A DNA stretch of 64,000 bases from an uncultured Clostridia bacterium (lineage in GTDB: Bacteria > Bacillota > Clostridia > Christensenellales > CAG-314), in contig CANRFV010000001.1 of NCBI GenBank assembly GCA_947629985.1, forward strand, positions 49,329-113,328, in the 5' to 3' direction. Below the pieces are notes generated by a model. It searched no databases and was not told where the DNA came from. It saw only the letters and a program-made list of their open reading frames with translations. A program made the position numbers and the translations under genes. The stretch's first letter is position 1; each line of letters starts with the position of its first letter. Of the stretch, positions 8,343-43,939 are shown piece by piece.

Positions 8343-8367
8343 TAAAGAAAACAGGCAGACACCTGTT
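8343..8367 (-). terminator. Rho-independent terminator after the recombinase genes
   Basis: The minus strand has the stem aacagg / cctgtt (6 bp, 6-nt loop) followed by ttctttaat, 40 nt downstream of the recombinase stop. Confidence 0.5.
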
Positions 8368-8406
8368 CTCTATTTATTATTGTAATATATTACATAACAA
8401 CTAAAT

Positions 8407-10134
8407 TTAAGCTTGTATTCTATATGGAATACTTACATTTTCAGCAAGGCTCAAATTCCGATTCTTAGTCAACATTTCTATTGCGTCTGTAAACTCATCT
8501 TTGAAATTAAACTCAATTCTGACGCTACCATCATGTTCTATATAAATCATCTGTATCAGCTCTTCTATTATACCACGATTTAGACGCGTAATGTTTTGAT
8601 GTTTCTTAAAAGATTCAACAAAGCTGTTTTGCGTCATTGATTCAGGATTTAATTGCGCCAATTCTTCATTTAGCTGGGAAATATTGATTTCAAGTTGCGT
8701 TATCTTTTCGGAATATTCTTTTTTGAAATGAAAATACTGTTCCCTTGTTATTATTTCATTTTTGAAATCGCCGTATAATTCGTTTTGAAACCTGACTAAT
8801 TTCTCTTTCTCCGCCCCGCAAGCGCATATCCCGTTTTTGATCTTAGCAACCTTCCAATCTACAATTGGATTGTTTTTGATTTTTTGCAAAAGAACGTCCA
8901 TTTCAACAGCTATATCAACGTATTTTCGTATGATTGCTATTACGACTTCATTCAATTTATTGACACGAATTGCATGCCTTGAACATTGTTTCCATTGCAA
9001 ATATGAACCGCAAACAAAATAATAAAACGACTTGCCATTCTTTATATATCCGCTTCTTTGCATAGCACGACCACAATCAGCGCATTTAATGTATCCCACA
9101 TAAATTGCGCCGGTAGCCTCACCACTTTCTGAAAGAGTTTCTGCTCCTTTTGCTTGCCAAGTATCTCGCTCAAATCTTTTCTGCGCTTTCTCAAAAGTTT
9201 CTTTATCGATAATAGCTTCGTGTGTTCCTTCTTTAATTATATAGTTTTCCTTTGGAACCGAAACACATTTATGAATTTTGTGACTGATTGTCTGATATGT
9301 TCCTTGTACCATATCGCCTATATACATTCTATTTTTAAGCATACGACGTATAGTTTGAGTAGACCAACCGGTATTTTTCTGCTCATATCTCAATGCCGAA
9401 TTGCTACCTAATCCTTTTCGCTGTTTGTATTCGGTAGGATTAAGTATACCCATTACTTTAAGTTTAAGCGCTATGTTATAGATGCTTACGCCTTCAATAA
9501 ACATACGATAAATCAATCTTACATTCTCGGCGGCTTCTTTATCTATAAGTAGCTTATGGTGATCATTCGGATCTTTTATATATCCATACAAGGCAAATGA
9601 GCCAATATATTCTCCTCTTCTACGCTTTGCGTTAAAAGAACTTTTGATTTTGGAAGAAATATCACGCGCATACTCATCGTTCATTACATTCTTAAAAGAA
9701 ACAGTAGAATTTCTGATTGATTCCGGCTGCTTAAAACTGTCGATATTATCATTTACTGAGATAAATCTCAATTTCAGTAGCGGAAAAACGACTTCAAGAT
9801 ACCGACCTGTTTCATGATAATTTCGTCCAAATCTTGATAAGTCCTTAACGATAACGCAATTTACTTTGCGACTTTTTATATCTTCCAACAGTCTTTTCAT
9901 ATTCGGGCGGTCAAAATCCGTACCCGAAAAACCATCGTCCGTATATACGTCATAAACTTCAATATCCGGATTTTTATCAAGATACCTTTCGATAATTTTA
10001 TGCTGATTTATAATGCTGTCGCTTTCCAACTTATCGCCATCTTCGCGCGATAACCTTAAATATACTCCGCACTTCCACACACTTTGTGCTACATAGTTAA
10101 TTGACGAATACTTACTGTTTCTTCCTGTACTCAT
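8407..10134 (-). CDS. Large serine recombinase (resolvase/invertase N-domain + recombinase domain + zinc ribbon + coiled coil)
   Basis: Catalytic-Ser region CGVYLRLSREDGDKLESDSIINQ and VIVKDLSRFGRNY, a recombinase domain, the zinc ribbon CADCGRAM...YYFVCGSY...CSRH, and a C-terminal coiled coil. Confidence 0.92.
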   Translation of the reverse strand: MSTGRNSKYSSINYVAQSVWKCGVYLRLSREDGDKLESDSIINQHKIIERYLDKNPDIEVYDVYTDDGFSGTDFDRPNMKRLLEDIKSRKVNCVIVKDLSRFGRNYHETGRYLEVVFPLLKLRFISVNDNIDSFKQPESIRNSTVSFKNVMNDEYARDISSKIKSSFNAKRRRGEYIGSFALYGYIKDPNDHHKLLIDKEAAENVRLIYRMFIEGVSIYNIALKLKVMGILNPTEYKQRKGLGSNSALRYEQKNTGWSTQTIRRMLKNRMYIGDMVQGTYQTISHKIHKCVSVPKENYIIKEGTHEAIIDKETFEKAQKRFERDTWQAKGAETLSESGEATGAIYVGYIKCADCGRAMQRSGYIKNGKSFYYFVCGSYLQWKQCSRHAIRVNKLNEVVIAIIRKYVDIAVEMDVLLQKIKNNPIVDWKVAKIKNGICACGAEKEKLVRFQNELYGDFKNEIITREQYFHFKKEYSEKITQLEINISQLNEELAQLNPESMTQNSFVESFKKHQNITRLNRGIIEELIQMIYIEHDGSVRIEFNFKDEFTDAIEMLTKNRNLSLAENVSIPYRIQA

Positions 10135-11873
10135 AGCGCTACCTCTTGATTTATATTTGTCGTAACTTGTAGAAGATTTTCTTGCTCAAACTCATCGAGC
10201 AAATTCCGGTTTATGTTGACATAATCAAGCGCATTCTTGAATGTATCTTGAAACTTAAATATAATTTCGATGCCCTTATTCTCGTGGACATATATAACAT
10301 CAACCAAAGCGATCAATATTTCACGCGTCAGCCTGTCTATGTTTCTATATTTAATAAAATGTTTTACCAATTCAGTTGATTCGTCTATACAATTCTTTTC
10401 TTGCGCCAGCAGTCCGTTTAGTTTATTGATTACGCTCTCTATTGATTTTAATTCCGTCTCATATTTTTCTTTTAACATCAAATATTGCGTTTTAGAAATC
10501 AATGCGTTTTTATAATCGGGATAGAGATCCAACAGTATTCTATTTGTTTTACTTTTTTCATTTTCTTTTTCAACAAGAATTTTCTCCAATTGGGATGCGC
10601 TACTTCTTTTATTTGGTGATTGACTGATTTTTTCGATTAATCTATCTATTTCCACCGCGGCATCAATGTATTTCGATATTACTGTTAAAACGGTTTTTTC
10701 GAGCAAATCTGATCTTACCGTATGTCTGGAACATGCAGCCTTTGTCATATTATCATACGTTTTACAAGTATAATAATGATATTTCTCTCTGAATTTTGCC
10801 CTACTCGCATTTTTCTTCACTAATTGTTTTCCACAATCAGCGCAACGTAAAAAACCTGCAAACAACGATAATTCTTGCGTTTTTGGTGAAACTCGCACAT
10901 CTCTGTTCATGATCCCTTGAATCGCAAAGAAAAGAGATTTATCAATAATTTTCTCATGATGGTTTTCAATTATTACCCATTTGTCCTCGCTTAACATTCT
11001 TACCTTCTCAACCTTATGACTGACCTTTTCATATTTACCTTGGACAAGATCCCCGGTATACATTCTATTAGTCAAAATCTTTCTGACAGTTTGAATGCTC
11101 CACAAGCCGCTATTATTACTTCTATGATAGTTAGAATATTTTTCACTCTTATATTTCGCGGGATTAGGTATTCCCATTTCATTCAACTTAAACGTAATCA
11201 TTCTATAAGATAACCCTGCCGCAAACCACTGAAATATTTGTCTGACTACGTCGGCAGCATCGGGATCAATAACCAATTGTCCTTTTACTGCCGTATCTCT
11301 AACATAGCCATATAAAGCAAAGCCGCAAATATATTCACCGTTTTCACGTTTTGCAGCAAATGTACTGCGAATTTTATTGGAAATATCCCTACAATACTCT
11401 TCATTCATAACATTTTTGAATGAGACGGATATATTGTTCATTGAAGTTGGATATAAAAAACTGTCAATGTTGTCAACCACCGAAATGAATCGAATATCCA
11501 TTACGGGGAAAAATATATCCAAATATTGACCGGCTTCTAAATAGTTTCTGCCAAATCGAGATAAATCCTTTACGATAACGCAATTTATACGTCCCATACG
11601 AATATCATCAATCAATCTCAAAAATTCCGGACGCTCAAAATTGGTTCCTGTATAACCGTCATCGGCATATTCGGAGATAATTTGAATATCAGGGTTTTCT
11701 ACCAAATAATCTTCAATAACAAGTCTTTGATTAAATATGCTATCGCTTTCATATTTATTATCATCGTCTTTATCGCCATCTTCCTTTGAAATACGCAAAT
11801 AAAGCCCTGCCTGCCACCGCTTGGTGGCTGACAAGGCTACATTATCTTTGATATATTTACTTGTGCGCGCCAT
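10131..11873 (-). CDS. Large serine recombinase, second tandem paralogue
   Basis: AGLYLRISKEDGDK...SDSIFNQ, VIVKDLSRFGRNY and CADCGKQL...YYTCKTY...CSRH. I take the start at the ATG at 11873 (MARTSKY), which follows GGAGG. It has a 4-nt overlap with the downstream recombinase. Confidence 0.92.
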   Translation of the reverse strand: MARTSKYIKDNVALSATKRWQAGLYLRISKEDGDKDDDNKYESDSIFNQRLVIEDYLVENPDIQIISEYADDGYTGTNFERPEFLRLIDDIRMGRINCVIVKDLSRFGRNYLEAGQYLDIFFPVMDIRFISVVDNIDSFLYPTSMNNISVSFKNVMNEEYCRDISNKIRSTFAAKRENGEYICGFALYGYVRDTAVKGQLVIDPDAADVVRQIFQWFAAGLSYRMITFKLNEMGIPNPAKYKSEKYSNYHRSNNSGLWSIQTVRKILTNRMYTGDLVQGKYEKVSHKVEKVRMLSEDKWVIIENHHEKIIDKSLFFAIQGIMNRDVRVSPKTQELSLFAGFLRCADCGKQLVKKNASRAKFREKYHYYTCKTYDNMTKAACSRHTVRSDLLEKTVLTVISKYIDAAVEIDRLIEKISQSPNKRSSASQLEKILVEKENEKSKTNRILLDLYPDYKNALISKTQYLMLKEKYETELKSIESVINKLNGLLAQEKNCIDESTELVKHFIKYRNIDRLTREILIALVDVIYVHENKGIEIIFKFQDTFKNALDYVNINRNLLDEFEQENLLQVTTNINQEVAL

Positions 11874-11962
11874 AATTGTACCTCCAAGATTACTTGGCGA
11901 TAGCAATTAAGATGCATTTAACGTTCTTATTTTAGCACTCCACCAAATAAATTTCAAGCCTT

Positions 11963-12479: not shown

Positions 12480-12710
12480 CTACTTTACATTATAATTATC
12501 TTGAATTTGCTTCTGCAAAAAACGATAACCTTGCCGTATCAATTCTACCTTTGAAATTCCGTGTTCTTTCAAAAAAGAATTGATCTCGTCCAATTCGCCT
12601 CGCGGCAAATAGGTGCTGAACGTCCCATTTGCCGCTCTGCGTTTATCTTTGTTCTTTTCCTCGTATCTTCGCTTTATAATGCGACTCGGTGTATCTTCTT
12701 TTCTTTCCAT
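12480..12710 (-). CDS. Small basic protein, possibly a ribbon-helix-helix DNA binder
   Basis: The 76-aa ORF has a Lys/Arg-rich N-terminus (RIIKRRYEEKNKDKRRAANGTFSTYLPRGELDEINSFLKEHGISKVELIRQGY). I recognise no catalytic motif. Confidence 0.4.
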   Translation of the reverse strand: MERKEDTPSRIIKRRYEEKNKDKRRAANGTFSTYLPRGELDEINSFLKEHGISKVELIRQGYRFLQKQIQDNYNVK

Positions 12711-12719
12711 AGTTACACC

Positions 12720-13082
12720 TCAGTCCACATAAACAAGTTCCGACAGAATCTCATTCTCGATTGCCTTGTTAAGCGCATTCAAACGGCGCGTATCTGTAAT
12801 ATAATCGCCTGTCCGTTTGTACTCGTCCAACTGCGACAACTTTTTTCGCAACACGTCGTCCATTTCTTCCGCCTGACGATCAATACCGTGCAAATATTCG
12901 GGAAGATTGACTATACCCAACATCTTTGCCACGTTATGTTCTTCAAGGTAAATTTTGGCAAGAGTTCCATACTTGCCATAGATGTGTTTTTGCGGTTTTA
13001 CGAGTTCTTGATAGCGTTTGATTTCTGCTACTGTCAACTCCTCTCCCGCTTCTGCTTTTTTCAAAATTTCTTTGTCGGTCAT
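12720..13082 (-). CDS. TnpV-like transposon accessory protein
   Basis: The 120-aa ORF matches the pattern GKYG...YLEEH...LPEYLHGIDRQAEEM...ILSELVY that I remember from TnpV of Tn4451-type serine-recombinase elements. It has a GGAGG RBS. Confidence 0.6.
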   Translation of the reverse strand: MTDKEILKKAEAGEELTVAEIKRYQELVKPQKHIYGKYGTLAKIYLEEHNVAKMLGIVNLPEYLHGIDRQAEEMDDVLRKKLSQLDEYKRTGDYITDTRRLNALNKAIENEILSELVYVD

Positions 13083-17789: not shown

Positions 17790-19024
17790 TCACTACCTCC
17801 TTCTCCTGCGCTCTCGTCTGTTCCACTATCTGACGATTCGCTTGATGAGCCATTTTCGCTTTCCGTGTATTTATCTCCGCTTTCGTCTGATGAATCGCTG
17901 CTATCCGACCCGCTCGAACCGCCGTCGCCATCCGAGTGCTTATGGTGTCTGGCGGCGTGAGCGATACCTTTAATGCCTTTCGCCGCTAAGCCTATCGTCA
18001 TACCACCAATTATTCGACCACCGTAAAATGCGCTTCTGAGGAAACTGCCTCCCGCATGCATATCGTCTGCTTGACCGAATAGCCTTGCAAATAATGTTTG
18101 ACCGGCAGGAATAACCATTGCACCACCTATAATCATGAATATCGTGAACATCGCGTTCCCGAAGCCACTCACGTTCGGCAAACTCATCTGCGAAATGAAT
18201 GGTAGTATCAGGACAAAGATGTTCACCGACAGAACCGCACCGTAAGCAAGAATGATTTTTGTAACAAACTGCTCTCGCCAATTTTTGAACCTTGCCCCAT
18301 CGTCGAGTGCAAGCGTTGACATAGACACGGGCATACAGAAGTATAGGAAAATGATTTCATATACTCTCTTTGCAAGGTTGAGAGTAGCCACGATCAGAGC
18401 AATGCACAGTGCTACACCTGCAATCAATGCAGGCAAGTACATAAACGTATTCGGGTTGACCATACCATTACACTTCCACGATGTGGGCCATATTCCAAAG
18501 AGTGCGGCATTATAGCCGCCGAAGATGTCGCTTACCGAGTAGGAAGTGATATTGATTCCATTGATCGAATGTCCTTTGAGCCAATCTCCCACACAGGCAT
18601 CGAATATAGCGTTTGAAAGTTTTGTTGTGTTCCCAATTTGGAAAATCTCTGCAAGCAGTTGCAACAATGCTCCCGAAATCATAATGCCGAGAAATACAAC
18701 AGCAAGCATCGCCATTGTGCCGAGAAGCGCAAGGAAAAACTTTCCGACTATTGTTGAAATATTTTTGTTGTTGGCTATCATATTCTTCACGAGAGCGACA
18801 ATGGTAAATATACAAGTTAATCCAACGGCGAGAATGAATATACACCAAAAGATTGTTCCAACGGTCGAATCTCCAATAAGAAACTCAATGATATTTATGT
18901 GCTGTCCGTGATAATTGATAGAAGCCACACCCGAAATCGCGGAGAATATTTCCATTGTTCCATCGATGAGTTGCAACATCCATAAGAATAATTGCAATCC
19001 GATCTCTTGAAAAAATATTAACAT
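17786..19024 (-). CDS. VirB6/TrbL-like polytopic channel protein with a Ser/Asp/Gly-rich C-terminal tail
   Basis: The 412-aa ORF has at least 6 TM helices and a low-complexity acidic tail (GGSSGSDSSDSSDESGD...). It sits between the pilin-like gene and virB4, with a 4-nt overlap with virB4. Confidence 0.6.
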   Translation of the reverse strand: MLIFFQEIGLQLFLWMLQLIDGTMEIFSAISGVASINYHGQHINIIEFLIGDSTVGTIFWCIFILAVGLTCIFTIVALVKNMIANNKNISTIVGKFFLALLGTMAMLAVVFLGIMISGALLQLLAEIFQIGNTTKLSNAIFDACVGDWLKGHSINGINITSYSVSDIFGGYNAALFGIWPTSWKCNGMVNPNTFMYLPALIAGVALCIALIVATLNLAKRVYEIIFLYFCMPVSMSTLALDDGARFKNWREQFVTKIILAYGAVLSVNIFVLILPFISQMSLPNVSGFGNAMFTIFMIIGGAMVIPAGQTLFARLFGQADDMHAGGSFLRSAFYGGRIIGGMTIGLAAKGIKGIAHAARHHKHSDGDGGSSGSDSSDSSDESGDKYTESENGSSSESSDSGTDESAGEGGSE

Positions 19025-19073: not shown

Positions 19074-19081
19074 GTTTACAG

Positions 19082-25080: not shown

Positions 25081-25096
25081 AACCTCCCTCAAAGGA

Positions 25097-25138: not shown

Positions 25139-25196
25139 CTCGAAAGTGTCAAAAACAAAGTTGTGGCACTTTCCTTATCCTGCCTCCCGTTTTTCC

Positions 25197-27082: not shown

Positions 27083-27085
27083 CTT

Positions 27086-37300: not shown

Positions 37301-40300
37301 CCTTTATCTTGTTCTGTTTTTCCCTTGCGGCAATGGTTTCTGCTTGATTGATAACTCGCTTCTCTTTACCGTCTGCATCCTGTATCGTGTCATAAATTGT
37401 TGTCGCTCGTAGGTTTAGCAAGTCCTCAAAAAGCCTATACGCCGGTGCCCGTTTTGTTCCGTAAACCTCCTTTTGCTTCATATCTGTGGTATATCTAACA
37501 TGCGCTTTTTGGTCAAGCCGCCAACTACTATCATGCGGATTGTAAAAAAGTTGAAAGTCGTGCCGAAAATACCAAGGAAGCCCTATGAGTTCTCTGTAAA
37601 ATTCCTCGTAATATTTTTTGTCAACCCAACTTGCGCCAAGTCGAACTGAAATTTCTCCTGCGGTAAGTGGCGTAGGCTGTATTTGTTCCAATGCAGCGAC
37701 ATTCTTTTGAAAGTCGGGATGTTCTGTTGCATAATCTCTCGCTGTCTGCAATTTTGATACAACTTGTCCCGAAAGATATTCTTCTGCCGTCTGAAAGCCC
37801 GAATACTTATCTCCGTCTACTACCGTATCTGGATCACGAAAAACCGCATTTCCAAGTTCGGACAAAACAGTGTCGTAATCCTTTTTCGTCAGTTCTTCGA
37901 TGTACGAAATATCTACTCTGCCACGCTCGTTTTGAGAAATCTGTAATGCCTCAAAGCAGTCATCCGTGCTTGTTACAGCCGTGTACGGTCTTATTGTCCG
38001 TTTTGTGAAGATGTCCGCTTTGAATATGACTTTGGTTTCCTCGTCAATATCCTCACAAGCAAAAAGAAGTGCGCTATCGCCATCTTCTTTGAACAGTTTT
38101 GTGTTCGTTTGGCTGTTTACGTTACCGTACTTTTTTACGAATGTGTCATAGTGAGCGTTGAGTTGCCTTTGTTCAAGTGCTAATACTTCATCCGAACAGC
38201 CCTGTATCTGAATGTCGAGAATATGGTGAAGTTCCTCTCTGAGTGCTATCATAGCCACGATACGTTGATATGCGTCTTTCGGATATTTGGGAATAGCCTG
38301 TTCGACCATTTCTTCCCCAATACGCATATACAATCTTCCGTTCTCCGCCTTGTAGCACAGGTGCTTAACATTGTAGTCCACTTCCGTCGTCTGTTCGACT
38401 TCGGGCGACTCTTGTGGTGCATCGAATATTCCTTGTGGCAACTTCTCGATTGCTTCAATCAATGCTTCTGAGAGCGGTCTGCCGTCTGGTTTTACAGTTA
38501 TATTCTCGGTATTGTATAGCCCGTGTTCTTTGGCAAGAATTCCGAGTATCATTTCGGGGTGTTTGATAAAGTAGTTATTTATCTCAAACCCCGCTTCGGT
38601 CGTACCTGTGGATAACCACTCTGTATTCTCTGTATTTGCATTAATACGCTCGTCGCGCTTTTTGAAAAACAAAATGTCCGTTATTACATCTGTTCCCGCT
38701 GTTTGCTTGAAGGCTGTATTCGGAAGTCGTATCGCACCGAGAAGTTCTGCCCTGTCTGCAAGATACTTCCTTGCATTGGGGTTAAGTTTATCCATAGTGC
38801 CTTTGCTTGTAACCACCGCCATTACGCCGCCTGCTTTGAGTTTGTCTATACTCTTTGCAAGAAAGTAATCGTGGATGTAGAAGTTGTACTTGTTATAATC
38901 TGTATCAAAGACCGAGTAGCCACCGAACGGCACATTTCCCACAACAACATCAAAGCGATCATTCGGAAATGTGGTATCTTCAAAACCTTTGATTTGGACG
39001 TTAGCCTCAGGATATAACTTTGTCGCTATTCTGCCCGTAAGATTATCAAGTTCAACACCATACAGCTTTGAACCGTCGGCTATTTCCTGCGGCATATATC
39101 CGAAGAAATTGCCCGTTCCCATAGCGGGTTCGAGAATACGGTTGTTGCCTTTTATGCCGAAACGTTCAAGCGCATGGTAGATACCACCGATAACTTCCTT
39201 TGATGTGTAATGCGCATTCAGGGTGCTACCCTTTGCGCGCTCGTAGTCCTCTTCCGAAAGAAGTTCTTTCAGCTCTGCATATTCCCTGCGCCACTCTTCG
39301 TTTTTCTCATCAAAGACTTGTGAAAGTCCACCCCATCCCACATATATTGCCAAAATTTTCTTTTCTTCGTCCGTGGGATCACGATTCTCTGCATATAATC
39401 TGTTGACGAGTTTGATTGCCGCAACATTGTTACGGAAACGTGTTTTGTTTCCACCAAGTTCTTTTTGTTCAAAGCCGATTTTGTTCAAATCGGTCTGTTC
39501 GGGCTTGCGTTGTTCCGCTTCCCGCTGTGGTGATAAGTCAATGACTACCTCTCGCAGTTTAATACCGTTTTTGAGAAGTTCGTCCCTGTCAATGTTCTGC
39601 GTTACGGTGTAGGGCTTTCCGTCCAAAGACTTTTTCTGCGAGCAAACAACCTCGTTCGGGTATATGCCCTGCAAACCTGTAACAGTCAGCGTATCGCCTT
39701 TGTAAATGTATTTATCCCCGACTCTTATCTCTCCCGATGCTGTGTTTCCTTGTTCTTTCTCGGTTTCCTCTTCATCGCGCTCCCCATCTTTCCATTCGTA
39801 GTTGGGACAGTAACTCAGATAGAAGTTCGTATCAAAACTGTCATCGTCAAGAACAACGTCCGATACTTCTTCTCTTTCTTCAAGTGCATCAGCAATCTCT
39901 TCTTTGTGTTCTCGAACAAACTGTTCGTCGTCCTTAAACTCGTCGAAATAGACGATCCAATTACCCTCGCTTGTGTTCTCCGTTCCCTCTTTTACGATGT
40001 CGTCTACAATGCTTTTGATTTTTTGCTTTATACGATCATCTGTTTTTTCGAGGTTTTCTTTACGTTCCCACGCTTTCCAATATCTCGGATGCCACCTTTG
40101 AAGCGACTCGTCAATGCCTTTGTTCCAATCCTTGAAAAATTGCTCTTTCTGCTCGTCGGTCAATGTATCGAATGGTACATAGTCATCTATGTTGCCTGTA
40201 TGCTCTAAATTGACATAAGAATGTAGAAAGTAAGCGTTGTCTTTCTGTAATATTCCCTTGTCATAGAGTTCTCGAAGCGGAATCGCAGCATCGCAATCTT

Positions 40301-42764
40301 CTTCGTAGCAATAGTAGCCGTTGTACATGTCTGTCCGATTTGCAAGTGCTTCGCCTGTCAGAATTTTCTCTGCCAATCCTGCCACTATCATAATGCCGCC
40401 GTGTCCGTCCGTGGATACAGAGTAAATACCATTTGCTATCGTTGTACACGATTGCACTTCGTCCCACGGTGAACTGCGCGGAATTAAGTTAGACGACTGT
40501 TGATTCTCTTCGATTATTCTTTTAGCTTCGGGGGATAATTCCTTAAAGCGATTTAACGTTGACTCTGTTGATTGACGAGGAGTAGGTCGTAATTTTCCCG
40601 CACGGATTAACTTTTCCCAATCTTCATCTTCTTCCGCATCCAAATCTCGACCGTCAAGTACGGGTATCTCCTGTTGCTCATCATCGATATACTTGTCGTT
40701 CTCAATCAAAGTACAAACCCTATCCGCAAAATCGTTCCACGTCAGTGTATAACGATCCTGCGTATTTCCCGCGGAGTTGTATCTTGTAATCCACACAGCA
40801 GCCGCATCGTACCTTGCCCGATAGCCATCACCACTTTCGATACTTGTACCGTATTCGTTGGACAGAAACTCAGCAAATGTAGTAAGTTCCGTTGTTTTGG
40901 CATATTCATCCAAAATTCGTTGCTTTCGATCTGCCGTTGTCCTTTTGATGATTTTACCGATAAAAGCGTTTTTGTCCTTTTCTGCTTCTTCTTGCTCCTG
41001 CTTTTCCCTTTCCTGCTCGGCAACATACTTCGGATATTCTTTCTTCTCCTGTTCGGTCAAGTAATTGTCATCATCAATAAGATCAGCTATGCGAACGGCT
41101 ACTTGATTCCAATTCAATGAAACGGTTATAAGTTTTTCGCCGTTTTCCCCACAGACGGACATTTTGATGCCCTTTGCATCGTGATTTTCGTCATCTCCAC
41201 CCCATTCGCTGTGTCCACCCCAACCGTATTCTTCTTTCAGAAACTCGGCAAACTCATGTTCGGTTGGATTCTCATTGTATTTGTCATAGATACGATATTT
41301 TCCGTATTCTACTCCGCTGCCATACTTTAACTGTCGCTCGATGAGAGCTTCTTCGGGCGACTGCTCCTGTTGCTCCTCCATAAGGTCAAAAATTGACAGC
41401 TGTGAAATATTTTTCCGTTTCCTATCCTTTATAGGTTTAGCATTTCCCGATGTGGTTCCTTTCTTTTTATCGGACTTGGGCTTTTCTTCGCTTAAATCTT
41501 CGGGATAATCTTCCTGTTCGCTTGCATCCGAAACGTCGTCATCGTCGTTCTCATACTCATCTTTTATAGGAAAGTGTGTGTCTATATCTCCGACATAATC
41601 CGGCTGTTTTTCTTCGTCATCAAACGGACTTGGTTCATCGTCCGTTATCTCAGTAAGCATTGGCATTTTTCCCATTGCTTCATCGTGGGATAGAATATAT
41701 CTTGCTTCTTCGTCCGATGCTTCTATCCAAACGATAGGATGTTTTTCAAGGATTTTTTCGGTATATAACTCTGCTACGTGATATGGAAAACCGCACATCG
41801 GCGCACGCTCGTCCTGCGCCACAGTTCGCCCCGTAAGTGTAAGGTCAAGCTCATCAGCAACATCTTCCGCCTTGTCGCCAAATACTTCATAAAAATCTCC
41901 GAGTCTCTGAATTACGACCGCCTCAGGGTATTTTTTCTGTTCGTCCAAATACCGCTGATAATACGGCTTATATTTCGGCTGTTCAACCTGTTCGGTTGGC
42001 TCATCCATAGGTTGGTCGGACGTATCTGTCTGTCCGACAGGTATCTCCGTCTGTTCAACGGGAATAGGAACTTTGTCCGTTGTGGTTTCGTCTTCCGTGT
42101 CATCAATAACATTGACTGCTTGCGCCCTACGCTCAAAAGCGTCCTCTATTTCCTGCGACAGAAAATCTGCCGTCATGTATATCTGCTTGAACAGTTCGGC
42201 ATTTTCCTTGTAGGAATACGGCAATCCGTTAAGCATGATTCCATTGTCTTTCGGAAAACCTGTCTTGCAATACAAAGAGTAAGCCGTTCCCTCTATCAGG
42301 AGTCCGTCATAAGTTTCGTTGCCCGTAAGTCTGCTCTGTTCGCGCAGATAGGTCTGTACTCCACGATGTATCTTTCGATAGTCGCTTCGCCCGTCGCCTT
42401 GCAAAGACGTACCGTTCAGTTCGTCCAAGCCTTCGAGCATCCGCTTCAACGGATAGAACAACCGCTGATACCTTGCGTCTCCGTTTGTATCTTGCGCGTC
42501 GAATACGAAACCTTTGTTGCCATCGCGGTCATAATACGGGATTCCTTTCTTGCCACGAGTAATGCGCCTGTCCATAGCGTTCCACTCTTCAAACGAAAAG
42601 CAGACGGAAGCGTTTGGACGGTTAATAACAATTTGGCAAGCCTCGTAAAGTTCGATGTGCGGATTTTGCGCAGAAAAACGATAGAAGTTGCGAAGTTGAT
42701 TTCCATCCGCAAGCATCGCGGCAACAAGTTTATTCCGTTCTTCCAAACTTATTATTCCGCTCAC
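30420..42764 (-). CDS. 4114-aa polyvalent ICE protein (ArdC-N-like, MutS-I-like, DarB-like N6-methylase + SNF2 helicase, DUF3848/3849-like, PrimPol + PriCT)
   Basis: A single uninterrupted 12.3-kb ORF. The motifs are listed in the domain features below. Confidence 0.95.
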   Translation of the reverse strand: MSGIISLEERNKLVAAMLADGNQLRNFYRFSAQNPHIELYEACQIVINRPNASVCFSFEEWNAMDRRITRGKKGIPYYDRDGNKGFVFDAQDTNGDARYQRLFYPLKRMLEGLDELNGTSLQGDGRSDYRKIHRGVQTYLREQSRLTGNETYDGLLIEGTAYSLYCKTGFPKDNGIMLNGLPYSYKENAELFKQIYMTADFLSQEIEDAFERRAQAVNVIDDTEDETTTDKVPIPVEQTEIPVGQTDTSDQPMDEPTEQVEQPKYKPYYQRYLDEQKKYPEAVVIQRLGDFYEVFGDKAEDVADELDLTLTGRTVAQDERAPMCGFPYHVAELYTEKILEKHPIVWIEASDEEARYILSHDEAMGKMPMLTEITDDEPSPFDDEEKQPDYVGDIDTHFPIKDEYENDDDDVSDASEQEDYPEDLSEEKPKSDKKKGTTSGNAKPIKDRKRKNISQLSIFDLMEEQQEQSPEEALIERQLKYGSGVEYGKYRIYDKYNENPTEHEFAEFLKEEYGWGGHSEWGGDDENHDAKGIKMSVCGENGEKLITVSLNWNQVAVRIADLIDDDNYLTEQEKKEYPKYVAEQEREKQEQEEAEKDKNAFIGKIIKRTTADRKQRILDEYAKTTELTTFAEFLSNEYGTSIESGDGYRARYDAAAVWITRYNSAGNTQDRYTLTWNDFADRVCTLIENDKYIDDEQQEIPVLDGRDLDAEEDEDWEKLIRAGKLRPTPRQSTESTLNRFKELSPEAKRIIEENQQSSNLIPRSSPWDEVQSCTTIANGIYSVSTDGHGGIMIVAGLAEKILTGEALANRTDMYNGYYCYEEDCDAAIPLRELYDKGILQKDNAYFLHSYVNLEHTGNIDDYVPFDTLTDEQKEQFFKDWNKGIDESLQRWHPRYWKAWERKENLEKTDDRIKQKIKSIVDDIVKEGTENTSEGNWIVYFDEFKDDEQFVREHKEEIADALEEREEVSDVVLDDDSFDTNFYLSYCPNYEWKDGERDEEETEKEQGNTASGEIRVGDKYIYKGDTLTVTGLQGIYPNEVVCSQKKSLDGKPYTVTQNIDRDELLKNGIKLREVVIDLSPQREAEQRKPEQTDLNKIGFEQKELGGNKTRFRNNVAAIKLVNRLYAENRDPTDEEKKILAIYVGWGGLSQVFDEKNEEWRREYAELKELLSEEDYERAKGSTLNAHYTSKEVIGGIYHALERFGIKGNNRILEPAMGTGNFFGYMPQEIADGSKLYGVELDNLTGRIATKLYPEANVQIKGFEDTTFPNDRFDVVVGNVPFGGYSVFDTDYNKYNFYIHDYFLAKSIDKLKAGGVMAVVTSKGTMDKLNPNARKYLADRAELLGAIRLPNTAFKQTAGTDVITDILFFKKRDERINANTENTEWLSTGTTEAGFEINNYFIKHPEMILGILAKEHGLYNTENITVKPDGRPLSEALIEAIEKLPQGIFDAPQESPEVEQTTEVDYNVKHLCYKAENGRLYMRIGEEMVEQAIPKYPKDAYQRIVAMIALREELHHILDIQIQGCSDEVLALEQRQLNAHYDTFVKKYGNVNSQTNTKLFKEDGDSALLFACEDIDEETKVIFKADIFTKRTIRPYTAVTSTDDCFEALQISQNERGRVDISYIEELTKKDYDTVLSELGNAVFRDPDTVVDGDKYSGFQTAEEYLSGQVVSKLQTARDYATEHPDFQKNVAALEQIQPTPLTAGEISVRLGASWVDKKYYEEFYRELIGLPWYFRHDFQLFYNPHDSSWRLDQKAHVRYTTDMKQKEVYGTKRAPAYRLFEDLLNLRATTIYDTIQDADGKEKRVINQAETIAAREKQNKIKEEFAKWIFADPERREDLERTYNSLFNRIRLPSFDGSYLRFPEMNPTIELKPHQKNAVHRIISGKVSTLLHHVVGAGKTYTMIASIMKMRQYGLCNKAMVAVPNHLVQQWAAEWRKLYPNAKLLIATKEDLEKDNRRKFVSKCAMGDWDGIIIAQSSFAKIPVSTERQIENLQKEIARIEMTVKKTWEESEMPRGAVKNLERIKKSKEAQLKKLMDSSDKDSVLNFESLGVDYLYIDEAHYYKNLFLYSKMNNVAGISAAASQRASDLKLKIEYLQEKHGSDRGVVFATGTPISNSMTEMYTMQSYLQPSVLQEAGINFFDSWAADFGETVTSLELAPSGQGYKARTRFSKFTNLPELLTMYRSFADVQTADMVKLDVPEAERIVVNLKPSDTVVDLAEEIAKRADRINGGGVDPHIDNMLKVTSDGKKLALDPRCYVDTASDEEGSKLNECAARVYEVWEQSTEKKGTQIVFCDLSTPKCRYEEYEYGKDFDAYNDLKHKLVERGIPPEEIAFIHDANTDEQKQALFDKVNGGTVRVLIGSTEKCGAGTNVQKRLVALHHLDTPYRPSDMQQREGRIIRQGNINEKVQIFTYVTERTFDSYSYQILENKQRFISQIDRGDLTVREAEDIDDRTLSYAEIKAITAANPRIKRKMEVDAEVARLRVLEGQYRKNLYALQDNIRKKFPEEIRRQELLIERVREDTAMLKEKYNPETFEISVNGKVYTDKKEGGKALTEALYASSPETVVAEYCGFKISIDPIVLIGAERTVTIAGSGQYGMNIGQSASGNLTRFENFIEDFSNRERRMTQKLEQIRQNLAIAEEEVKKPFEHEEHLAELLKEQAELNAELNLDKREEVIIEDEGGSSDGENYTVLPDRNERTQKGRPRKRLDNIATEQINKQAEQNPNVNIFYKNGDGYDLIGEQAERFAAENGLHIKTEIVDGKSYAVLPIKESELDNYVAQLVDRGEKTLVIEPIPRVKEVDFIENEDKVAEMQVEVLPDRTISQESMNDYGYKWNGMLPVRREMAKTLLNHITLYALYGNDTESEVKSENDIEVHNGIFGVEKPDWNEFINSKEGVAYLYARKVVADANGILLNREMDYFDAKFTDPLSDSNFEEKTELNEFLKGIEPPTADETKPYIMDLISEQKGRLGGVPYEAYGWTLADVKRAIARNIFDNELRIYAEEAVKIEEKKLVEEKENYEQAMKEENPKDFADEDPFTAAMLDDIEVEGNFKKKSKQGYPVLAVFDDGERKHAILRRERTNGDKDYIVARGYNDRRGEWAQGDYDFTSYQAAEDFLEQEYPHAEQIENFTGEELVYKQIVQDSVANEFADFKAKMLNKSPEEVFLNNYKIHIYTELCDTIQDGEDLTEKDFRALYEERGNVLRLLYDEFIDRDGVSVETYWDTAQFIKGYNEHFHDDIMEQPLLFNGEQTYYFGNDENGTAYYFLPALNRENLAEIKRETSRYIIVAPTCHLSKEQLDEYNIQFLKLDRDIAEEELKIPVRNIESMQVAVRRAEPLYMQTAEYALEHGEIAEYRWSMRLNQECKEELDKAIGNNFKDNILNKEFVKGFVEKYGIDRVSNIIASTITQSDWDKRYTDENKEWARTVPLTGDERSRAGLHLSAHPVLVNSVADDIRKEYEKQKSEIKEEEKEMPENQAQAQAATKPQRNWLRYKVSTDAVIRIYNRWTWMKMPQDNPEYKDYTYNVFTNRMWETVIPLDGQGDESESAWGIAIAEDEIVRLKNRDGDEKELSAKEFIALVDGSTSERYATPQSERNNIVIPREAVMKTYESTTLFAAPNGVGYDGYIYYLPNSVIKENTDTEKGDIAANIGKNFNVTLRKGDEKVQFTGEQFAELLGKTNADSYKRQPTAMDEYREQQGEDEQQTKWQTVPLNEKAVLHKYENSTLLKMPKGEYAGLVCYVPNGFIKESEKGLDLRIPEDFTAHLKGDDKVIDLDAATLVAAIKDKTNEDYETNFRKPSEEKVKAFEAVEKNLRENVPAEMKAKPNWVIVRTSENKDTGRFDKYLIDVHTGKAAKSNDASTWTDFDSACQYAKENGGVALAYALDGQDNIVCIDVDDCIDEVGNINSVGATTAGFGNGTYSERSISGKGLHVFGKMQNLDVRAFSKDGDLEFYQDKHFIAMTGNPLTSVTSKELKDLDKTGMREFISQKCEKRTEWKGVGAGIDGLSVMYDREVLDRAMSAKNGDTFKRLYNGEDIRNNHSNSDMSLMNQLAFWCRHDKDQMLRIFATSGLYRPDKPQSYYEYTAMKAVKSSPAYNPPKASNSAPKSSGGGNGKV
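31395..32310 (-). repeat. Three tandem copies of an unassigned ~90-aa domain inside the giant ORF
   Basis: The copies start at LRYKVSTDAVIRIYNRWTWMKMPQ..., IVIPREAVMKTYESTTLFAAPNGVGYDGYIYYLPNSVIKE... and QTVPLNEKAVLHKYENSTLLKMPKGEYAGLVCYVPNGFIKE.... Each ends ...V.L...EF..L. Confidence 0.5.
34385..34590 (-). other. Domain: second, divergent MutS domain I-like module (aa ~2726-2793)
   Basis: NIFYKNGDGYDLIGEQAERFAAENGLHIKTEIVDGKSYAVLPIKESELDNYVAQLVDRGEKTLVIE has the same spacing as copy 1 but with GDGYD in place of GDFYE. Confidence 0.4.
35480..37160 (-). other. Domain: SNF2/DEAD-like superfamily-2 helicase (aa ~1870-2430)
   Basis: LKPHQKNAVHRI, motif I VVGAGKTYTM, motif II YLYIDEAHYYKN and motif VI QQREGRIIRQGN. 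Together with the methylase this gives a phage P1 DarB-like arrangement. Confidence 0.85.
38650..39470 (-). other. Domain: gamma-class N6-adenine DNA methyltransferase (aa ~1100-1370)
   Basis: Motif I is ILEPAMGTGNFFG (about 39099-39137) and motif IV is VVGNVPFG (about 38919-38948). Confidence 0.85.
41720..41965 (-). other. Domain: MutS domain I-like module, copy 1 (aa ~267-348)
   Basis: YYQRYLDEQKKYPEAVVIQRLGDFYEVFGDKAEDVADELDLTLTGRTVAQDERAPMCGFPYHVAELYTEKILEKHPIVWIE follows the MutS N-terminal mismatch-domain pattern (GDFYE.F..DA......L...LT.R.....PM.G.P.H....Y...L...G..V...E). Confidence 0.6.
42464..42704 (-). other. Domain: ArdC-N/DUF1738-like ssDNA-binding module (aa ~20-100)
   Basis: SVCFSFEEWNAMDRRITRGKKGIPYYDRDG resembles the ArdC-N pattern [FW]xTFxQ...G..V.KGEKG. 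The match is weak. Confidence 0.4.
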
Positions 42765-43021
42765 TTTGCAACCTCAACGCTATCGGTTTGTGCAACCGGA
42801 AAGTAAATAATATTGTAGGCGGCTCTGATACCCACAAAATTTATTAGCGCCATAAGTTGTTCCCAAGAAAAAGGCTCGCGCTTGCACAGTTTTTTCTTGA
42901 ACTCCACCACATCAATGCCCAATTTCTTTGCCATTTCTGTTTGAGTTAGCCCATGTTGGAATATCCAACGTTTTAGGCTGTTCTTTTTTAAGGAATAACT
43001 TTCTCTTATTTCTTCTTGCAT
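42761..43021 (-). CDS. XRE-family HTH protein
   Basis: The 86-aa ORF contains LKRWIFQHGLTQTEMAKKLGIDVVEFKKKL and has a 4-nt overlap with the giant gene. Confidence 0.7.
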   Translation of the reverse strand: MQEEIRESYSLKKNSLKRWIFQHGLTQTEMAKKLGIDVVEFKKKLCKREPFSWEQLMALINFVGIRAAYNIIYFPVAQTDSVEVAK

Positions 43022-43269
43022 ACTTCCTCCAAGTAATCGTCTGCACTAAGCGGATTTTTTTTATTTATTGCTTTCCAATCAATAAAGTCTTGCGCCTTGT
43101 CTGCTTTCATAAAGTAAATAAACTTTTTTGCCGTGTCATACCCAACAGCTTGTCCACTTAACATATTTTCCACTTCGCTCTTTTTCACGTTCAATTTCGC
43201 TGCAAATTGGGCGATAGTCAGTTGATGCTCGTCCAGGTATGCTCTCAGCTTTTCCTTTTTTACAATCAT
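43006..43269 (-). CDS. XRE-like HTH protein
   Basis: The ATG at 43269 follows GGAGGG. The HTH is LRAYLDEHQLTIAQFAAKLNVKKSEVENMLSG. The track start at 43329 is an upstream extension. Confidence 0.65.
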   Translation of the reverse strand: MIVKKEKLRAYLDEHQLTIAQFAAKLNVKKSEVENMLSGQAVGYDTAKKFIYFMKADKAQDFIDWKAINKKNPLSADDYLEEVCKKK

Positions 43270-43337
43270 CAAATCCCTCCGTAATTTTTGTGAGAACCTT
43301 CCATAATACTTGGGACAGAAAAATAGCAAAATCGGAC

Positions 43338-43769
43338 CTATTTCAAAAAATTTTTGAAAATTTTATTGTAAGCCGCAATCAAGCGCTTTCTCACCGCCTT
43401 TTCGGAAACATTAAGCATTTTGGCAATTTTGACTTTTCTAATGCCCTTTATGTGATGCAGTATGTAAACCTCGCGTTGTTTGTCAGTCAACAAGCCCATA
43501 ATTTTTTGACTTAGTTCTTGCGCCTGCTCCTCTTGCAAAATACGATTCAGCGGATTGGCATCTACCAACGGCTCTTGTCCAACTTCGCGCAACTGTTCCA
43601 ACGACACATCTGCTTTTGTGGACAGACCTGCTCGCTGTTTTTGTTTTTTGACTTTCGCTTTGTAGTTTTTCTCTTGTGCGTCAAGCTGTTCAAGCGCAAG
43701 TTTCACTTCATCGCTCACCTCAATTTCTTCCGTATGACCATCGGCAAACTGATATAGTACCTTTTCCAT
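43338..43769 (-). CDS. Sigma-70 region-4-type transcription factor (Tn916 orf7-like ICE regulator)
   Basis: LTDKQREVYILHHIKGIRKVKIAKMLNVSEKAVRKRLIAAYNKI is a region 4.2 HTH. It has an AGGAGG RBS. Confidence 0.75.
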   Translation of the reverse strand: MEKVLYQFADGHTEEIEVSDEVKLALEQLDAQEKNYKAKVKKQKQRAGLSTKADVSLEQLREVGQEPLVDANPLNRILQEEQAQELSQKIMGLLTDKQREVYILHHIKGIRKVKIAKMLNVSEKAVRKRLIAAYNKIFKNFLK

Positions 43770-43791
43770 AAAATAACCTCCTATTTGCTTT

Positions 43792-43825
43792 CGCTATCGG
43801 AGGTATAGAAAAACCCCCGATAGCG
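43792..43825 (-). promoter_or_regulatory. Hairpin in the 5' leader of the sigma-like gene
   Basis: A 9-bp stem cgctatcgg / ccgatagcg with a 16-nt loop, ending about 22 nt upstream of the start codon. Its function is unknown. Confidence 0.3.
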
Positions 43826-43939
43826 TTGTTAAACGCCATCGAGGGCACTATAAAAAAAATCTACGCACAACAACCCACAAAAGGTTCAACTTGCTCAGTA
43901 GACCACAATTACAAAATATACAAAAGTTTTCAACTTCCG

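Follow-up and report, generated by a model that had tools for sequence, protein, structure and literature searches.

A probable conjugative mobile element of about 66 kb lies inside the sporulation gene spoIVB of an uncultured Clostridia bacterium

The window, by which we mean the whole 64,000-nt stretch that was analysed, carries the gene modules named in a preliminary description of the locus; Pfam matches showed that the two serine recombinases, relaxase, type IV coupling protein (T4CP), VirB4, anti-restriction genes and regulators are real. They form a co-oriented minus-strand run, as had been described, with a single plus-strand gene as the only exception (AAA_14/DUF4143, 29079–30377). 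The left end, up to the start of the conjugation genes, contains the following features:

6760–6831, minus: 3' fragment of spoIVB, chromosomal DNA at the left junction (last 23–24 codons and the stop codon, 6760–6762)
6821–6831, minus: core of the left attachment site, GTTACTCACGT, with the crossover somewhere inside; the 11-mer is repeated where the spoIVB 5' part breaks off
6832–6865, minus: element-side arm of the left attachment site (..CCCAATTTTAATTTTTTTGTTTATAACTTATTGACA), kept beside the spoIVB fragment in loci L074 and L075
6872–8249, minus: hipA (6872–7966; Pfam HipA_C, Couple_hipA) and hipB (7956–8249; HTH_3, precomputed annotation), a toxin–antitoxin pair between the recombinase and the element end
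8407–10134, minus: terminal large serine recombinase, 575 aa (Pfam Resolvase, Recombinase and Zn_ribbon_recom)
10131–11906, minus: second large serine recombinase (ORF of 591 aa from TTG; likely start ATG at 11873, giving 580 aa)
11896–11922, minus: 27-nt element located in the second recombinase gene's 5' UTR (BLAST 26/27 against contig L077, 510–536)
11963–12217, minus: DUF6870 protein, 84 aa (Pfam PF21757), always found with this recombinase pair
12480–13082, minus: 76-aa protein and TnpV (Pfam TnpV), the last block of conserved backbone before the exchangeable recombinase module

Both recombinases, which share 43% identity and whose genes overlap by 4 nt, retain the catalytic serine motif (YLRLSRED in the terminal enzyme), and a sigma-70-like promoter is predicted for the second gene at 11957–11929. 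The AT-richness reported for this module was borne out, with a GC content of 0.34–0.38 at 8–13 kb against 0.42–0.51 in the rest of 13–43 kb. Homologues of the terminal recombinase (70–73% identity) also adjoin spoIVB fragments in L074 and L075, where the order of the DUF6870 gene and the recombinase pair is alike, the 27-nt element again lies upstream of the recombinase genes and the neighbouring genes are unrelated to those found here. An inverted copy of the 27-nt element is located just inside the right end of the element (L077, 510–536). The DUF6870 protein is a candidate directionality or accessory factor. In L074, hipBA is missing at this position and the recombinase stop codon abuts the attachment site. 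At the inner edge of the module, backbone homology to other loci stops at ~12.4–12.7 kb, and identical metagenome contigs break at 12564–12614.

The genes for conjugation, DNA processing, establishment and regulation, and those to their right, are arranged as follows:

13180–15153, minus: surface protein, 657 aa; signal/TM segment, seven repeats of ~38 aa rich in Cys, and a pilin-like domain of two helices at the C-terminus
15150–17789, minus: VirB4-type ATPase (Pfam TraG P-loop; NCBIfam Mbov_0397 576 bits, cut-off 590)
17786–19024, minus: polytopic membrane protein, 412 aa (NCBIfam MMCAP2_0566 174 bits, cut-off 90; Mbov_0396 92 bits, cut-off 70)
19082–19378, minus: pilin-like two-helix protein, 98 aa (Pfam T4SS_pilin 22.8 bits, cut-off 26.6; NCBIfam Mbov_0395 28 bits, cut-off 40)
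19404–21047, minus: surface protein, 547 aa; signal peptide, six Cys-rich repeats, spacer rich in Pro, Asp and Glu, and membrane anchor at the C-terminus
21062–23290, minus: T4CP (Pfam T4SS-DNA_transf 164 bits, and TraG-D_C; NCBIfam CD1115 244 bits, cut-off 250)
23291–25200, minus: MobL-type relaxase (23291–24610; Pfam MobL 39.3 bits, cut-off 28.5) and a 197-aa accessory ORF (24607–25200)
25197–28795, minus: N6_N4 methyltransferase, DUF6291 protein, MT-A70 methyltransferase, and ArdC-N with zincin peptidase
29079–30377, plus: AAA_14/DUF4143 ATPase, the sole plus-strand backbone gene
30420–42764, minus: 4114-aa multidomain protein (MutS_I, DUF7007, Eco57I-type methylase, SNF2 helicase, DUF3848/DUF3849, NrS-1 polymerase helix bundle)
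42761–43769, minus: regulatory module of two small HTH proteins and a sigma-70 region-4 protein
43770–44096, minus: end of the conserved backbone; the regulatory module's promoter region and a terminator lie here, as do the final 25 codons of the first BspA-type gene
44021–64000, minus: probable cargo between the spoIVB halves (Pfam), running ~8.5 kb past the window end

The conjugation set comprises a relaxase, T4CP, VirB4, a polytopic protein that is probably a channel component (about six hydrophobic segments), two pilin-like proteins and two surface proteins, in line with the earlier view of a serine-recombinase ICE with a complete but small set, and all backbone ORFs are full length. The apparatus matches the NCBI Mycoplasma-ICE families (Mbov_0395/0396/0397), and the best plasmid matches of the VirB4 are from Spiroplasma and Mycoplasma (24–28% identity). 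The 657-aa protein, which itself matches the Mbov_0395 family weakly, shares 33% identity over its C-terminal 88 aa with the 98-aa pilin-like protein (E=1e-14), and the latter is conserved at 68–94% in most related loci; the pilin-like assignments score below curated thresholds, which counts against the conjugative reading of the locus. The 547-aa protein, a probable adhesin, shares its Cys-rich repeat with the 657-aa protein. The relaxase also matched NCBIfam MobP3 below the cut-off (66 bits), and its pairing with the 197-aa ORF is kept in related loci. Neither a cell-wall hydrolase nor a VirB8-like protein was detected in the conjugation set; as sporulation and cell-wall genes exist in the host lineage, this may point to an incomplete apparatus rather than to a minimal one.

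The ends of the element differ from those described before. A stretch of ~90 nt located 3' of the terminal recombinase (window 6843–6760) is conserved in L074 and L075; its variation at third codon positions agrees with a minus-strand reading frame, and it codes for the SpoIVB C-terminus. When window positions 6763–6852 (minus strand) were compared with 1.84 billion representative proteins, the matches were to the extreme C-termini of proteins of 370–450 aa with PDZ and Peptidase_S55 (SpoIVB) domains (Pfam). The fragment is 80–83% identical to the intact spoIVB 3' ends in two related genomes (L080 and L082), and the element-side arm is not spoIVB-like. Because the attachment site at 6821–6831 abuts the last 24 spoIVB codons (6831–6760), hipBA, previously assigned to a flank of housekeeping genes, lies inside the element, whose left end is at 6821–6831 instead of 8343.

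The right end, formerly placed at 43830, is located ~8.5 kb beyond the window on metagenome contig L077, which is 100% identical to window 51134–64000 (the last 12.9 kb) and continues for 8.5 kb to the 5' part of spoIVB, whose 352-aa PDZ and Peptidase_S55 product ends in ..GKLVGAVTHV*. As this junction is outside the window, its linkage rests on the assembly of L077 across the 12.9 kb of identity; further contigs with the same neighbours exist. The core lies at 478–488 of L077, where the spoIVB 5' part breaks off, with one mismatch against the window 11-mer. In 73 kb, the 11-bp core GTTACTCAYGT has two copies only, one at each spoIVB break and in the same orientation. Intact spoIVB genes cover the two halves with an overlap of 13 nt located exactly at the core; the two parts flank the whole block in the same orientation, and joining them at the core restores the spoIVB reading frame and the conserved C-terminus. 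The reconstructed attP is TTATTGACA-GTTACTCAYGT-TTAATATATAAT and the reconstructed attB is GGCGCG-GTTACTCAYGT-ATTTATAAACGATCC; no convincing inverted symmetry was found in either.

The attachment sites, which had been thought unreadable, could be read once empty sites were found. The comparison with empty sites proposed in the preliminary description revealed uninterrupted spoIVB in conserved synteny in three related genomes:

L080: recN, spoIVB, membrane protein, metalloenzyme
L081: spoIVB, membrane protein, metalloenzyme, PBP5
L082: dxs, argR, recN, spoIVB, ..., ScpA, ScpB, SpoVA

None of the genes of the element is present at the locus in the related genomes with intact spoIVB, so the block is not a vertically inherited, syntenic region across the genus. 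Because spoIVB is uninterrupted in the same gene neighbourhood of these three genomes, the recombination unit is taken to be ~65.7 kb, not 35.5 kb, and to consist of the ICE backbone (to ~44096) together with the surface-protein, galactan and Leloir genes. The BspA/galactan block, which had been regarded as chromosomal, lies between the split spoIVB halves and is therefore inserted DNA too. The preliminary observation was thus confirmed in part, and its interpretation supported in part.

Conservation differs between the backbone and the DNA to its right. The same backbone gene order was found in 45 gut MAG loci, with VirB4 identities of 57–98% and differing recombinase modules. Two backbone relatives, L068 and L071, are ~97% identical to the window up to ~44096 and then only 74–80% identical in DNA (62% in protein, for the adjacent BspA gene), and in a third, L073, a 90% identical backbone adjoins an amylase and an ABC transporter. 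The window part of the cargo encodes two BspA/Big_2 surface proteins, two GH53 galactanases, a 622-aa protein, an aldose epimerase and an ABC sugar transporter (binding protein, two permeases and a MalK-type ATPase), and the part on L077 encodes a DUF6119 protein, GalE, GalK, GalT, two AraC regulators and a GT8 gene. The element probably carries a 28-kb galactan-utilisation gene set.

We consider it likely, with a probability of roughly three in four, that the locus is an ICE of ~65.7 kb integrated site-specifically into the 3' end of spoIVB, 19 codons before the stop. Counting against this reading, no circular junction or repaired spoIVB of this strain was found, and the 28-kb right block, in which recombinase and conjugation genes are lacking and conservation is far below that of the backbone, could have entered separately. 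On the latter account, which we regard as unlikely, an ICE of ~37 kb (6.8–44.1 kb) and a separate non-conjugative glycan-utilisation island (44.1–72.5 kb) accreted in spoIVB in tandem and have kept only their outer junctions; the island would then not be genuine cargo, and the ability of the ICE to excise by itself may have been lost. The sharp fall in conservation at ~44096 in L068 and L071, the lack of mobility genes in the right block and the differences between right-hand blocks among relatives would fit such a history; however, there is no internal att-like site or core copy throughout the 73 kb and no second recombinase in the right block, the outer junctions alone form a matched pair, and carbohydrate or surface-protein genes occupy the same position in three backbone relatives, as expected of a cargo bay.

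It is very improbable that the insertion is a fixed and decaying relic, vertically inherited in a lineage without sporulation in which spoIVB is a pseudogene. Every contig of the strain shows the integrated state, neither attP nor a repaired attB sequence was seen, and the truncated SpoIVB lacks the strongly conserved C-terminal motif, but the backbone genes are all intact, both recombinases keep their catalytic motifs and both cores are preserved. Moreover, both spoIVB parts are open, the reconstituted C-terminal half is 80–83% identical to intact proteins, other sporulation genes (SpoVA, YtfJ) are found nearby in this lineage, and near-identical backbones stand beside diverged neighbours. 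Hardly tenable is the original placement of a 35.5-kb ICE (~8343 to ~43830) flanked on the chromosome by housekeeping genes and by a surface-protein/galactan locus. It does encompass all conjugation and recombination genes (8407–43769) and agrees with a composition shift near 8 kb, but 8343 leaves out hipBA and the conserved element-side arm, both of them further left, the spoIVB fragment begins at 6831 and the other spoIVB part is found beyond the galactan block, intact spoIVB in related genomes has none of these genes, and no inverted or direct repeat linking 8250–8530 to 43770–44030 was found.

The ~65.7-kb ICE resembles the intervening elements of other sporulation genes, such as skin/sigK, SPbeta/spsM, gin/gerE, vfbin/spoVFB, vrin/spoVR and phi3T/kamA (PMC4191935, PMC5595907, PMC6957869), in lying within a coding region whose frame precise excision would rebuild, in having large serine recombinase genes at one end (gin also has several) and in the short core shared by its junctions (11 bp, compared with 16 bp in SPbeta and 9 nt in gin). 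Whereas the published elements are prophages, prophage remnants or non-conjugative (gin), the spoIVB element has a full conjugation module. Their targets are almost all mother-cell genes (PMC6957869); in contrast, spoIVB belongs to the forespore sigmaF/sigmaG regulons in B. subtilis and C. difficile (PMC3789822). Among the papers on intervening elements that literature searches returned, none mentions spoIVB in its text.

The conjugation module resembles those of Mycoplasma ICEs (ICEA/MICE) and Spiroplasma conjugative plasmids (PMC6030558), with adjacent pilin-like, polytopic and VirB4 genes, a coupling protein, surface protein(s) and a simplified type IV system without a wall hydrolase; NCBIfam models of Mycoplasma proteins match, and the annotated VirB4 proteins nearest to this one belong to Mollicutes. 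However, the VirB4 identity is only 24–28%, and there are differences in the relaxase, anti-restriction and regulatory modules. Integration of Mycoplasma ICEs relies on a DDE transposase and shows no site preference, whereas the spoIVB element has two serine recombinases and a specific site, and its host is a walled, sporulation-gene-bearing member of the Clostridia (Christensenellales-like) instead of a wall-less mycoplasma. Features in common with the clostridial transposons Tn4451/Tn4453 (TnpX, TnpV) and Tn5397 (TndX) are the end-located large serine recombinase, the presence of a TnpV homologue in the spoIVB element and the Firmicute host, but these transposons have one recombinase instead of two in tandem, the insertion here is site-specific and inside a gene, and the conjugation module is a different one (Tn5397 is Tn916-like). 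Two adjacent, diverged large serine recombinase genes associated with one att pair are also known from SCCmec (CcrA/CcrB), which differs in being non-conjugative and in targeting rlmH (orfX). Polysaccharide-utilisation loci of gut bacteria can be borne by ICEs, as is the porphyran locus of Bacteroides plebeius; as in these, a complete pathway of glycan degradation, uptake and catabolism lies within the boundaries of a conjugative element, with the difference that the host here belongs to the Firmicutes and an ABC transporter serves for uptake.

We infer that the element can excise and transfer. The two recombinases encoded at the left end (575 and ~580 aa), perhaps aided by the DUF6870 protein, would recombine the two junctions, releasing the element as a circle and leaving spoIVB repaired. 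The MobL-type relaxase would then nick the circle, and the coupling protein would pass the DNA to a simplified mating channel like those of Mycoplasma and Spiroplasma conjugative elements. VirB4 and a single polytopic membrane protein would make up this channel together with pilin-like two-helix proteins, one of which is fused to a Cys-repeat surface protein; the element also encodes a second Cys-repeat adhesin. ArdC, the two methyltransferases and the giant helicase/methylase may protect and establish the incoming DNA, and hipBA may stabilise the integrated element. The recombinase module appears to be exchangeable, in that the backbone is joined to different serine recombinases at other loci and this recombinase pair targets spoIVB while joined to other gene sets. 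The region from the regulatory module to the right end would serve as a variable cargo bay, filled here with a galactan-degradation and galactose (Leloir) pathway and BspA-type surface proteins, which, judging only by their position between the attachment sites, would be transferred together with the backbone.

As judged from sequence comparison, the ICE is a unit of ~65.7 kb that splits the sporulation gene spoIVB; it has hipBA as cargo, a channel of the Mollicutes type and, for integration, an exchangeable module of two recombinases. Between 6150-8600 and 43760-44030, the surroundings of the ends proposed in the preliminary description (8343 and 43830), inverted and direct repeats gave chance-level matches only. 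A stretch of ~90 nt downstream of the recombinase was conserved in the window and in L074 and L075, two loci with the same type of recombinase pair; in the window it follows hipBA, at 6843-6760. Substitutions in this stretch sit on third codon positions of the minus-strand frame, and its reading as the end of a plus-strand gene was rejected on this pattern. In a search of 1.84 billion representative proteins, the encoded peptide matched the extreme C-terminus of proteins of 370-450 aa, which carry PDZ and Peptidase_S55 domains (Pfam) and are thus SpoIVB. The spoIVB 3′ fragment occupies 6831-6760, with homology starting at GTTACTCACGT (6831-6821). The dozen bases upstream, AACTTATTGACA, are kept among all three elements but do not resemble spoIVB, and were therefore assigned to the element arm. 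In a contig of 1670 nt (L006), identity to the window at 6759-8278 was 99.8% through hipBA and the spoIVB fragment, and divergence was total directly after the stop codon (6760), which suggests the same element end in a genome with different DNA downstream of spoIVB.

The 5′ part of spoIVB is absent from the window. L077, a metagenome contig 100% identical to window 51134-64000 and extending 9 kb beyond it, was retrieved by a look-up with the 622-aa protein encoded close to the end of the window. After the GT8 glycosyltransferase gene, this contig has a gene that shares the strand of the ICE genes and encodes a 352-aa PDZ and Peptidase_S55 product ending ..GMSGSPIVQNGKLVGAVTHV*; AT-rich DNA and a terminator come next. 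The break (L077 478-488) carries GTTACTCATGT, one mismatch away from the 11-mer of the left junction. Over the joined 73 kb, the core GTTACTCAYGT occurred at two places only, 6821-6831 and L077 478-488, in direct orientation, with ~0.07 occurrences expected by chance (an arithmetic estimate), and the unit measured 65,694 bp from core to core. The att sites, previously considered unreadable without a comparator, could thus be placed; the element runs off the window rather than ending at 8343 and 43830, and hipBA on the left and the BspA and galactan genes on the right, taken earlier for chromosomal flanks, both lie inside the split spoIVB.

Genes next to the right junction and at three empty sites, in order
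L077, past the window end: aldose epimerase, DUF6119, GalE, GalK, GalT, two AraC-type regulators, GT8 glycosyltransferase
L080, empty site: dxs, argR, recN, spoIVB, membrane protein, metalloenzyme
L081, empty site: spoIVB, membrane protein, metalloenzyme, PBP5
L082, empty site: dxs, argR, recN, spoIVB, metalloenzyme, PBP5, M50, ScpA, ScpB, SpoVA

The comparison with related genomes that had been recommended gave an uninterrupted spoIVB with the same neighbours in L080, L081 and L082. One side of each intact gene aligned to L077 and the other to window 6831-6760, with a 13-nt overlap at the core, indicating that all the DNA between the cores is inserted; the two halves are co-oriented, which rules out an inversion. 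They are also in the same codon phase across the core, so that excision at the core would restore the reading frame, and the joined product matches intact homologues; intact proteins found with the reconstituted C-terminal half were 80-83% identical. The spoIVB fragment was also considered as a replacement 3′ end borne by the element, a reading rejected on two grounds, its position at the far end with respect to the gene's direction and the discovery of the 5′ part upstream. BspA was discarded as the interrupted gene, as its natural C-terminus is near the junction and shows no spoIVB similarity, and the window holds no tRNA target. A protein match first taken for a second insertion site (P0223) came from a frameshift-ridden assembly, which gave the third empty site instead. 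Look-ups of exact proteins (recombinase, HipB, sigma protein and BspA) led back to the same strain only, in the integrated state and with no empty site among them. Scans of viral and metagenome collections with the N-terminus of the giant protein and with the recombinase gave nothing informative on the right end, and scoring the reconstructed attP and attB for symmetry was of no help.

Several further features of the spoIVB region were observed. An AT-rich non-coding gap of ~570 bp (6187-6759) separates the spoIVB stop codon from the following chromosomal gene, for a 167-aa membrane protein; L081 and L080, two of the empty-site loci, have next to no gap at this position. The 5′ UTR of the second recombinase gene contains a 27-nt sequence (11896-11922) with an inverted copy of 26/27 identity at L077 510-536 (window-equivalent ~72467-72493), 22 nt inside the right end of the element, just downstream of the truncated spoIVB and upstream of the terminator; the UTR copy is kept in L074 and L075. 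A read-through transcript of spoIVB would be antisense to the recombinase leader, or the two copies may be a shared protein-binding site. Three predicted proteins (P0138, P0148 and P0177) are chimeric, with an unrelated N-terminus joined to the SpoIVB C-terminus before NGKLVGAV or before LLEKTGG; they hint at other elements at other sites in the spoIVB 3′ region, or may be misassemblies.

Whether the right block belongs to the ICE was assessed by comparison with loci sharing its backbone. L068 and L071 are ~97% identical to the window up to ~44096, a point within the final 25 codons of the first BspA gene, past which the neighbouring protein is only 62% identical; in L073, a regulatory module of 90% identity lies beside an amylase and a different ABC transporter. 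A separate island accreted beside the ICE could be proposed for the DNA past this point, but we regard this as unlikely. Neither mobility genes nor att-like sites were found in the right block, including its part on L077, with the core search covering 73 kb. We interpret the right block as a cargo bay of variable content, placed between the regulatory module and the right-hand end of the element, and the galactan/galactose pathway is very probably ICE cargo. Within this block, the second BspA-type surface protein gene contains ~4 diverged tandem repeats of 160 nt (50057-50877; a 321-nt super-repeat, 85% match). In a contig of 869 nt and coverage 1.7 (L010), which matches window 7830-8527 and L077 2441-2613, an internal point of the PocR/AraC gene of the right cargo is fused to the final 120 nt of the terminal recombinase gene, with a microhomology of 2 bp (TA) at the joint. 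Taken as a deletion, this would span 61.9 kb, with loss of the ICE backbone, the larger part of the cargo and almost all of both recombinase genes but not of hipBA; the contig may represent a true deletion derivative or else a chimeric assembly. The junction at 8527 is no module boundary within the recombinase.

ORF mapping and domain scans confirmed that 8407-43769 carries, on the minus strand, the gene content already named for its modules.

Genes of the ICE backbone (8407-43769)
minus strand: two large serine recombinases (575 and 591 aa), both with Resolvase, Recombinase and Zn_ribbon_recom domains
minus strand: DUF6870 protein, 76-aa protein and TnpV (domain scans)
13180-15153, minus strand: 657-aa membrane protein
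minus strand: VirB4-type ATPase, 412-aa polytopic protein and 98-aa two-helix protein
19404-21047, minus strand: 547-aa surface protein
minus strand: coupling protein, MobL relaxase and 197-aa ORF
minus strand: N6_N4 and MT-A70 methyltransferases, DUF6291 protein and ArdC with a zincin domain
30420-42764, minus strand: 4114-aa methylase/SNF2 protein
minus strand: two HTH proteins and a sigma-70 region-4 protein
plus strand: AAA_14/DUF4143 gene, the single plus-strand gene of the block

The GC content was 0.34-0.38 over 8-13 kb versus 0.42-0.51 elsewhere in the block, so the recombinase module, described by eye as AT-rich, is truly so. Besides its methylase and SNF2 helicase, the giant protein contains two stretches of MutS domain I and a C-terminal NrS-1 polymerase helix bundle, a combination that is unusual for an establishment or anti-restriction protein.

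The view of the region as a real ICE with a small conjugation gene set was upheld by domain scores for the MobL relaxase (39.3 bits, cut-off 28.5), the coupling protein (T4SS-DNA_transf, 164 bits) and VirB4 (TraG P-loop, 51 bits). Against NCBIfam families defined on Mycoplasma ICEs, the 412-aa protein scored above the cut-offs, and VirB4 and the pilin-like proteins below theirs.

Scores against Mycoplasma ICE families (NCBIfam)
VirB4: Mbov_0397, 576 bits, just below the cut-off of 590; E=1e-172, full length
412-aa protein: MMCAP2_0566, 174 bits, cut-off 90
412-aa protein: Mbov_0396, 92 bits, cut-off 70
98-aa protein: Mbov_0395 (pilin-like), 28 bits, cut-off 40
657-aa protein, C-terminus: Mbov_0395 (pilin-like), 22 bits, cut-off 40

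The nearest annotated VirB4 proteins in plasmid records were those of Spiroplasma and Mycoplasma (24-28% identity). The C-terminus of the 657-aa protein is 33% identical to the 98-aa pilin-like protein (E=1e-14), suggesting an adhesin-pilin fusion; Gram-positive systems have been said to lack VirB2-type pilins (bioRxiv 10.1101/2025.01.22.634366). Behind signal sequences, the 547-aa and 657-aa proteins carry six and seven Cys-rich repeats, respectively, of ~38 aa (CTxxGYTxxxCxxC...GH), which are covered by no Pfam family, and both are probable adhesins. Wall hydrolase, VirB8-like and VirB3-like proteins were not detected in the backbone. The gene set, previously called unusually reduced, can be accounted for by kinship of its channel with the Mollicutes type. 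Mycoplasma-type ICEs (MICEs) insert at random by means of a DDE (Mutator-like) transposase, whereas this element has no DDE transposase and uses two serine recombinases at a specific site; it is therefore not a MICE, and the channel module alone is related.

The backbone was found in many other genomes, mostly with other recombinases. A scan for VirB4 with one genome per species identified 45 loci in gut MAGs from rabbit, human, mouse and ruminant, labelled Christensenellales/Borkfalkiaceae, 'Clostridia' or 'Bacilli'. Most of the longer loci keep the order ArdC, methylases, relaxase, T4CP, 547-aa, pilin-like, 412-aa, VirB4, 657-aa, TnpV and 76-aa and then diverge, after ~12.4-12.7 kb, into unrelated serine recombinases; only L017 shares the recombinases of the window (96% identity), and its homology continues through hipBA. 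Metagenome contigs identical to the window, from five independent assemblies, all end at 12564-12614, inside the 76-aa gene, which suggests that the backbone, but not the recombinase module, is repeated in those samples. The border between the shared backbone and the exchangeable module is at 12564-12614, and the contig ends imply that several backbone copies or variants co-exist in the samples.

Both recombinases have all three Pfam domains above cut-off and the catalytic serine motif, with a weak match to DUF4368. The TnpV homologue scored 31.9 bits (cut-off 27), and a sigma-70-like promoter was the only one predicted upstream of the second recombinase gene. In L074 and L075, the order DUF6870-recombinase-recombinase is kept among unrelated neighbours, with terminal recombinase homologues that are 70-73% identical; it is only a guess that DUF6870 is a directionality factor. 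In L074 (CANREJ010000001.1, 285-4962), from a distant genome (PBP5 48% identical), this module lies directly beside a spoIVB fragment, with an overlap between the att arm and the stop codon of the recombinase; upstream there is a gene for a class II aldolase in place of conjugation genes. Other elements, possibly non-conjugative, are therefore served by the spoIVB-targeting module as well.

Elements that interrupt sporulation genes are a textbook case of programmed DNA rearrangement, and they are thought to be tolerated because they lie in genes that the disposable mother cell alone uses. Skin, SPbeta, gin, vfbin, vrin and phi3T each lie in a sporulation gene, carry one or more serine recombinase genes at an end, have a short junction core and allow in-frame repair (PMC4191935, PMC5595907, PMC6957869). 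Here, too, a sporulation gene is split within its coding region, and both of its parts are kept. However, the published elements are prophages, prophage remnants or the non-conjugative gin, whereas this one carries a conjugation module, and their target genes are almost all mother-cell genes (PMC6957869), whereas spoIVB is a member of the forespore sigmaF/sigmaG regulons of B. subtilis and C. difficile (PMC3789822); judged by these regulons, the element departs from the skin/SPbeta/gin type in its target. In the literature library that we searched in full text, no report of any element in spoIVB was found. The authors of a compatibility study reported finding no natural ICEs with swapped recombination units (PMC6957869), and the backbone described here bears different recombinase modules in different genomes.

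The insertion strips SpoIVB of 19 residues, including the strongly conserved FxNDPxxGYG, 18 residues past the catalytic-serine motif GMSGSP, and loss of this C-terminal motif suggests that the truncated protein is probably inactive. Excision would yield the circular junction ..TTATTGACA GTTACTCAYGT TTAATATATAATAAGG.. and the repaired spoIVB junction ..GTCGGCGCG GTTACTCAYGT ATTTATAAACGATCC..; neither was present among the contigs retrieved. That the ICE acts as a reversible switch on a forespore-expressed spoIVB, with sporulation completed only after excision in the spore-forming cell, is a speculative proposal to which we give little weight. If it were true, the ICE would be the first germ-line-side intervening element, obliged either to persist as a circle and re-integrate or to be lost from every spore and depend on conjugation alone. 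Sporulation, and hence gut-to-gut transmission, would then be coupled directly to ICE excision and transfer, and a part in such coupling is conceivable for the 27-nt sequence that the recombinase 5′ UTR shares, in inverted orientation, with the DNA just past the truncated spoIVB.

With these results, the range of the simplified conjugation channel of the Mollicutes type widens to walled Clostridia, in many gut MAGs, and an entire galactan-to-galactose pathway is placed within ICE boundaries. The element is a natural example of a conjugative element with a recombinase module that differs by exchange between relatives, one version being aimed at a sporulation gene. It offers a concrete test case for two questions: whether the 'mother-cell only' rule truly acts as a constraint, and whether an ICE can gate sporulation in gut anaerobes.
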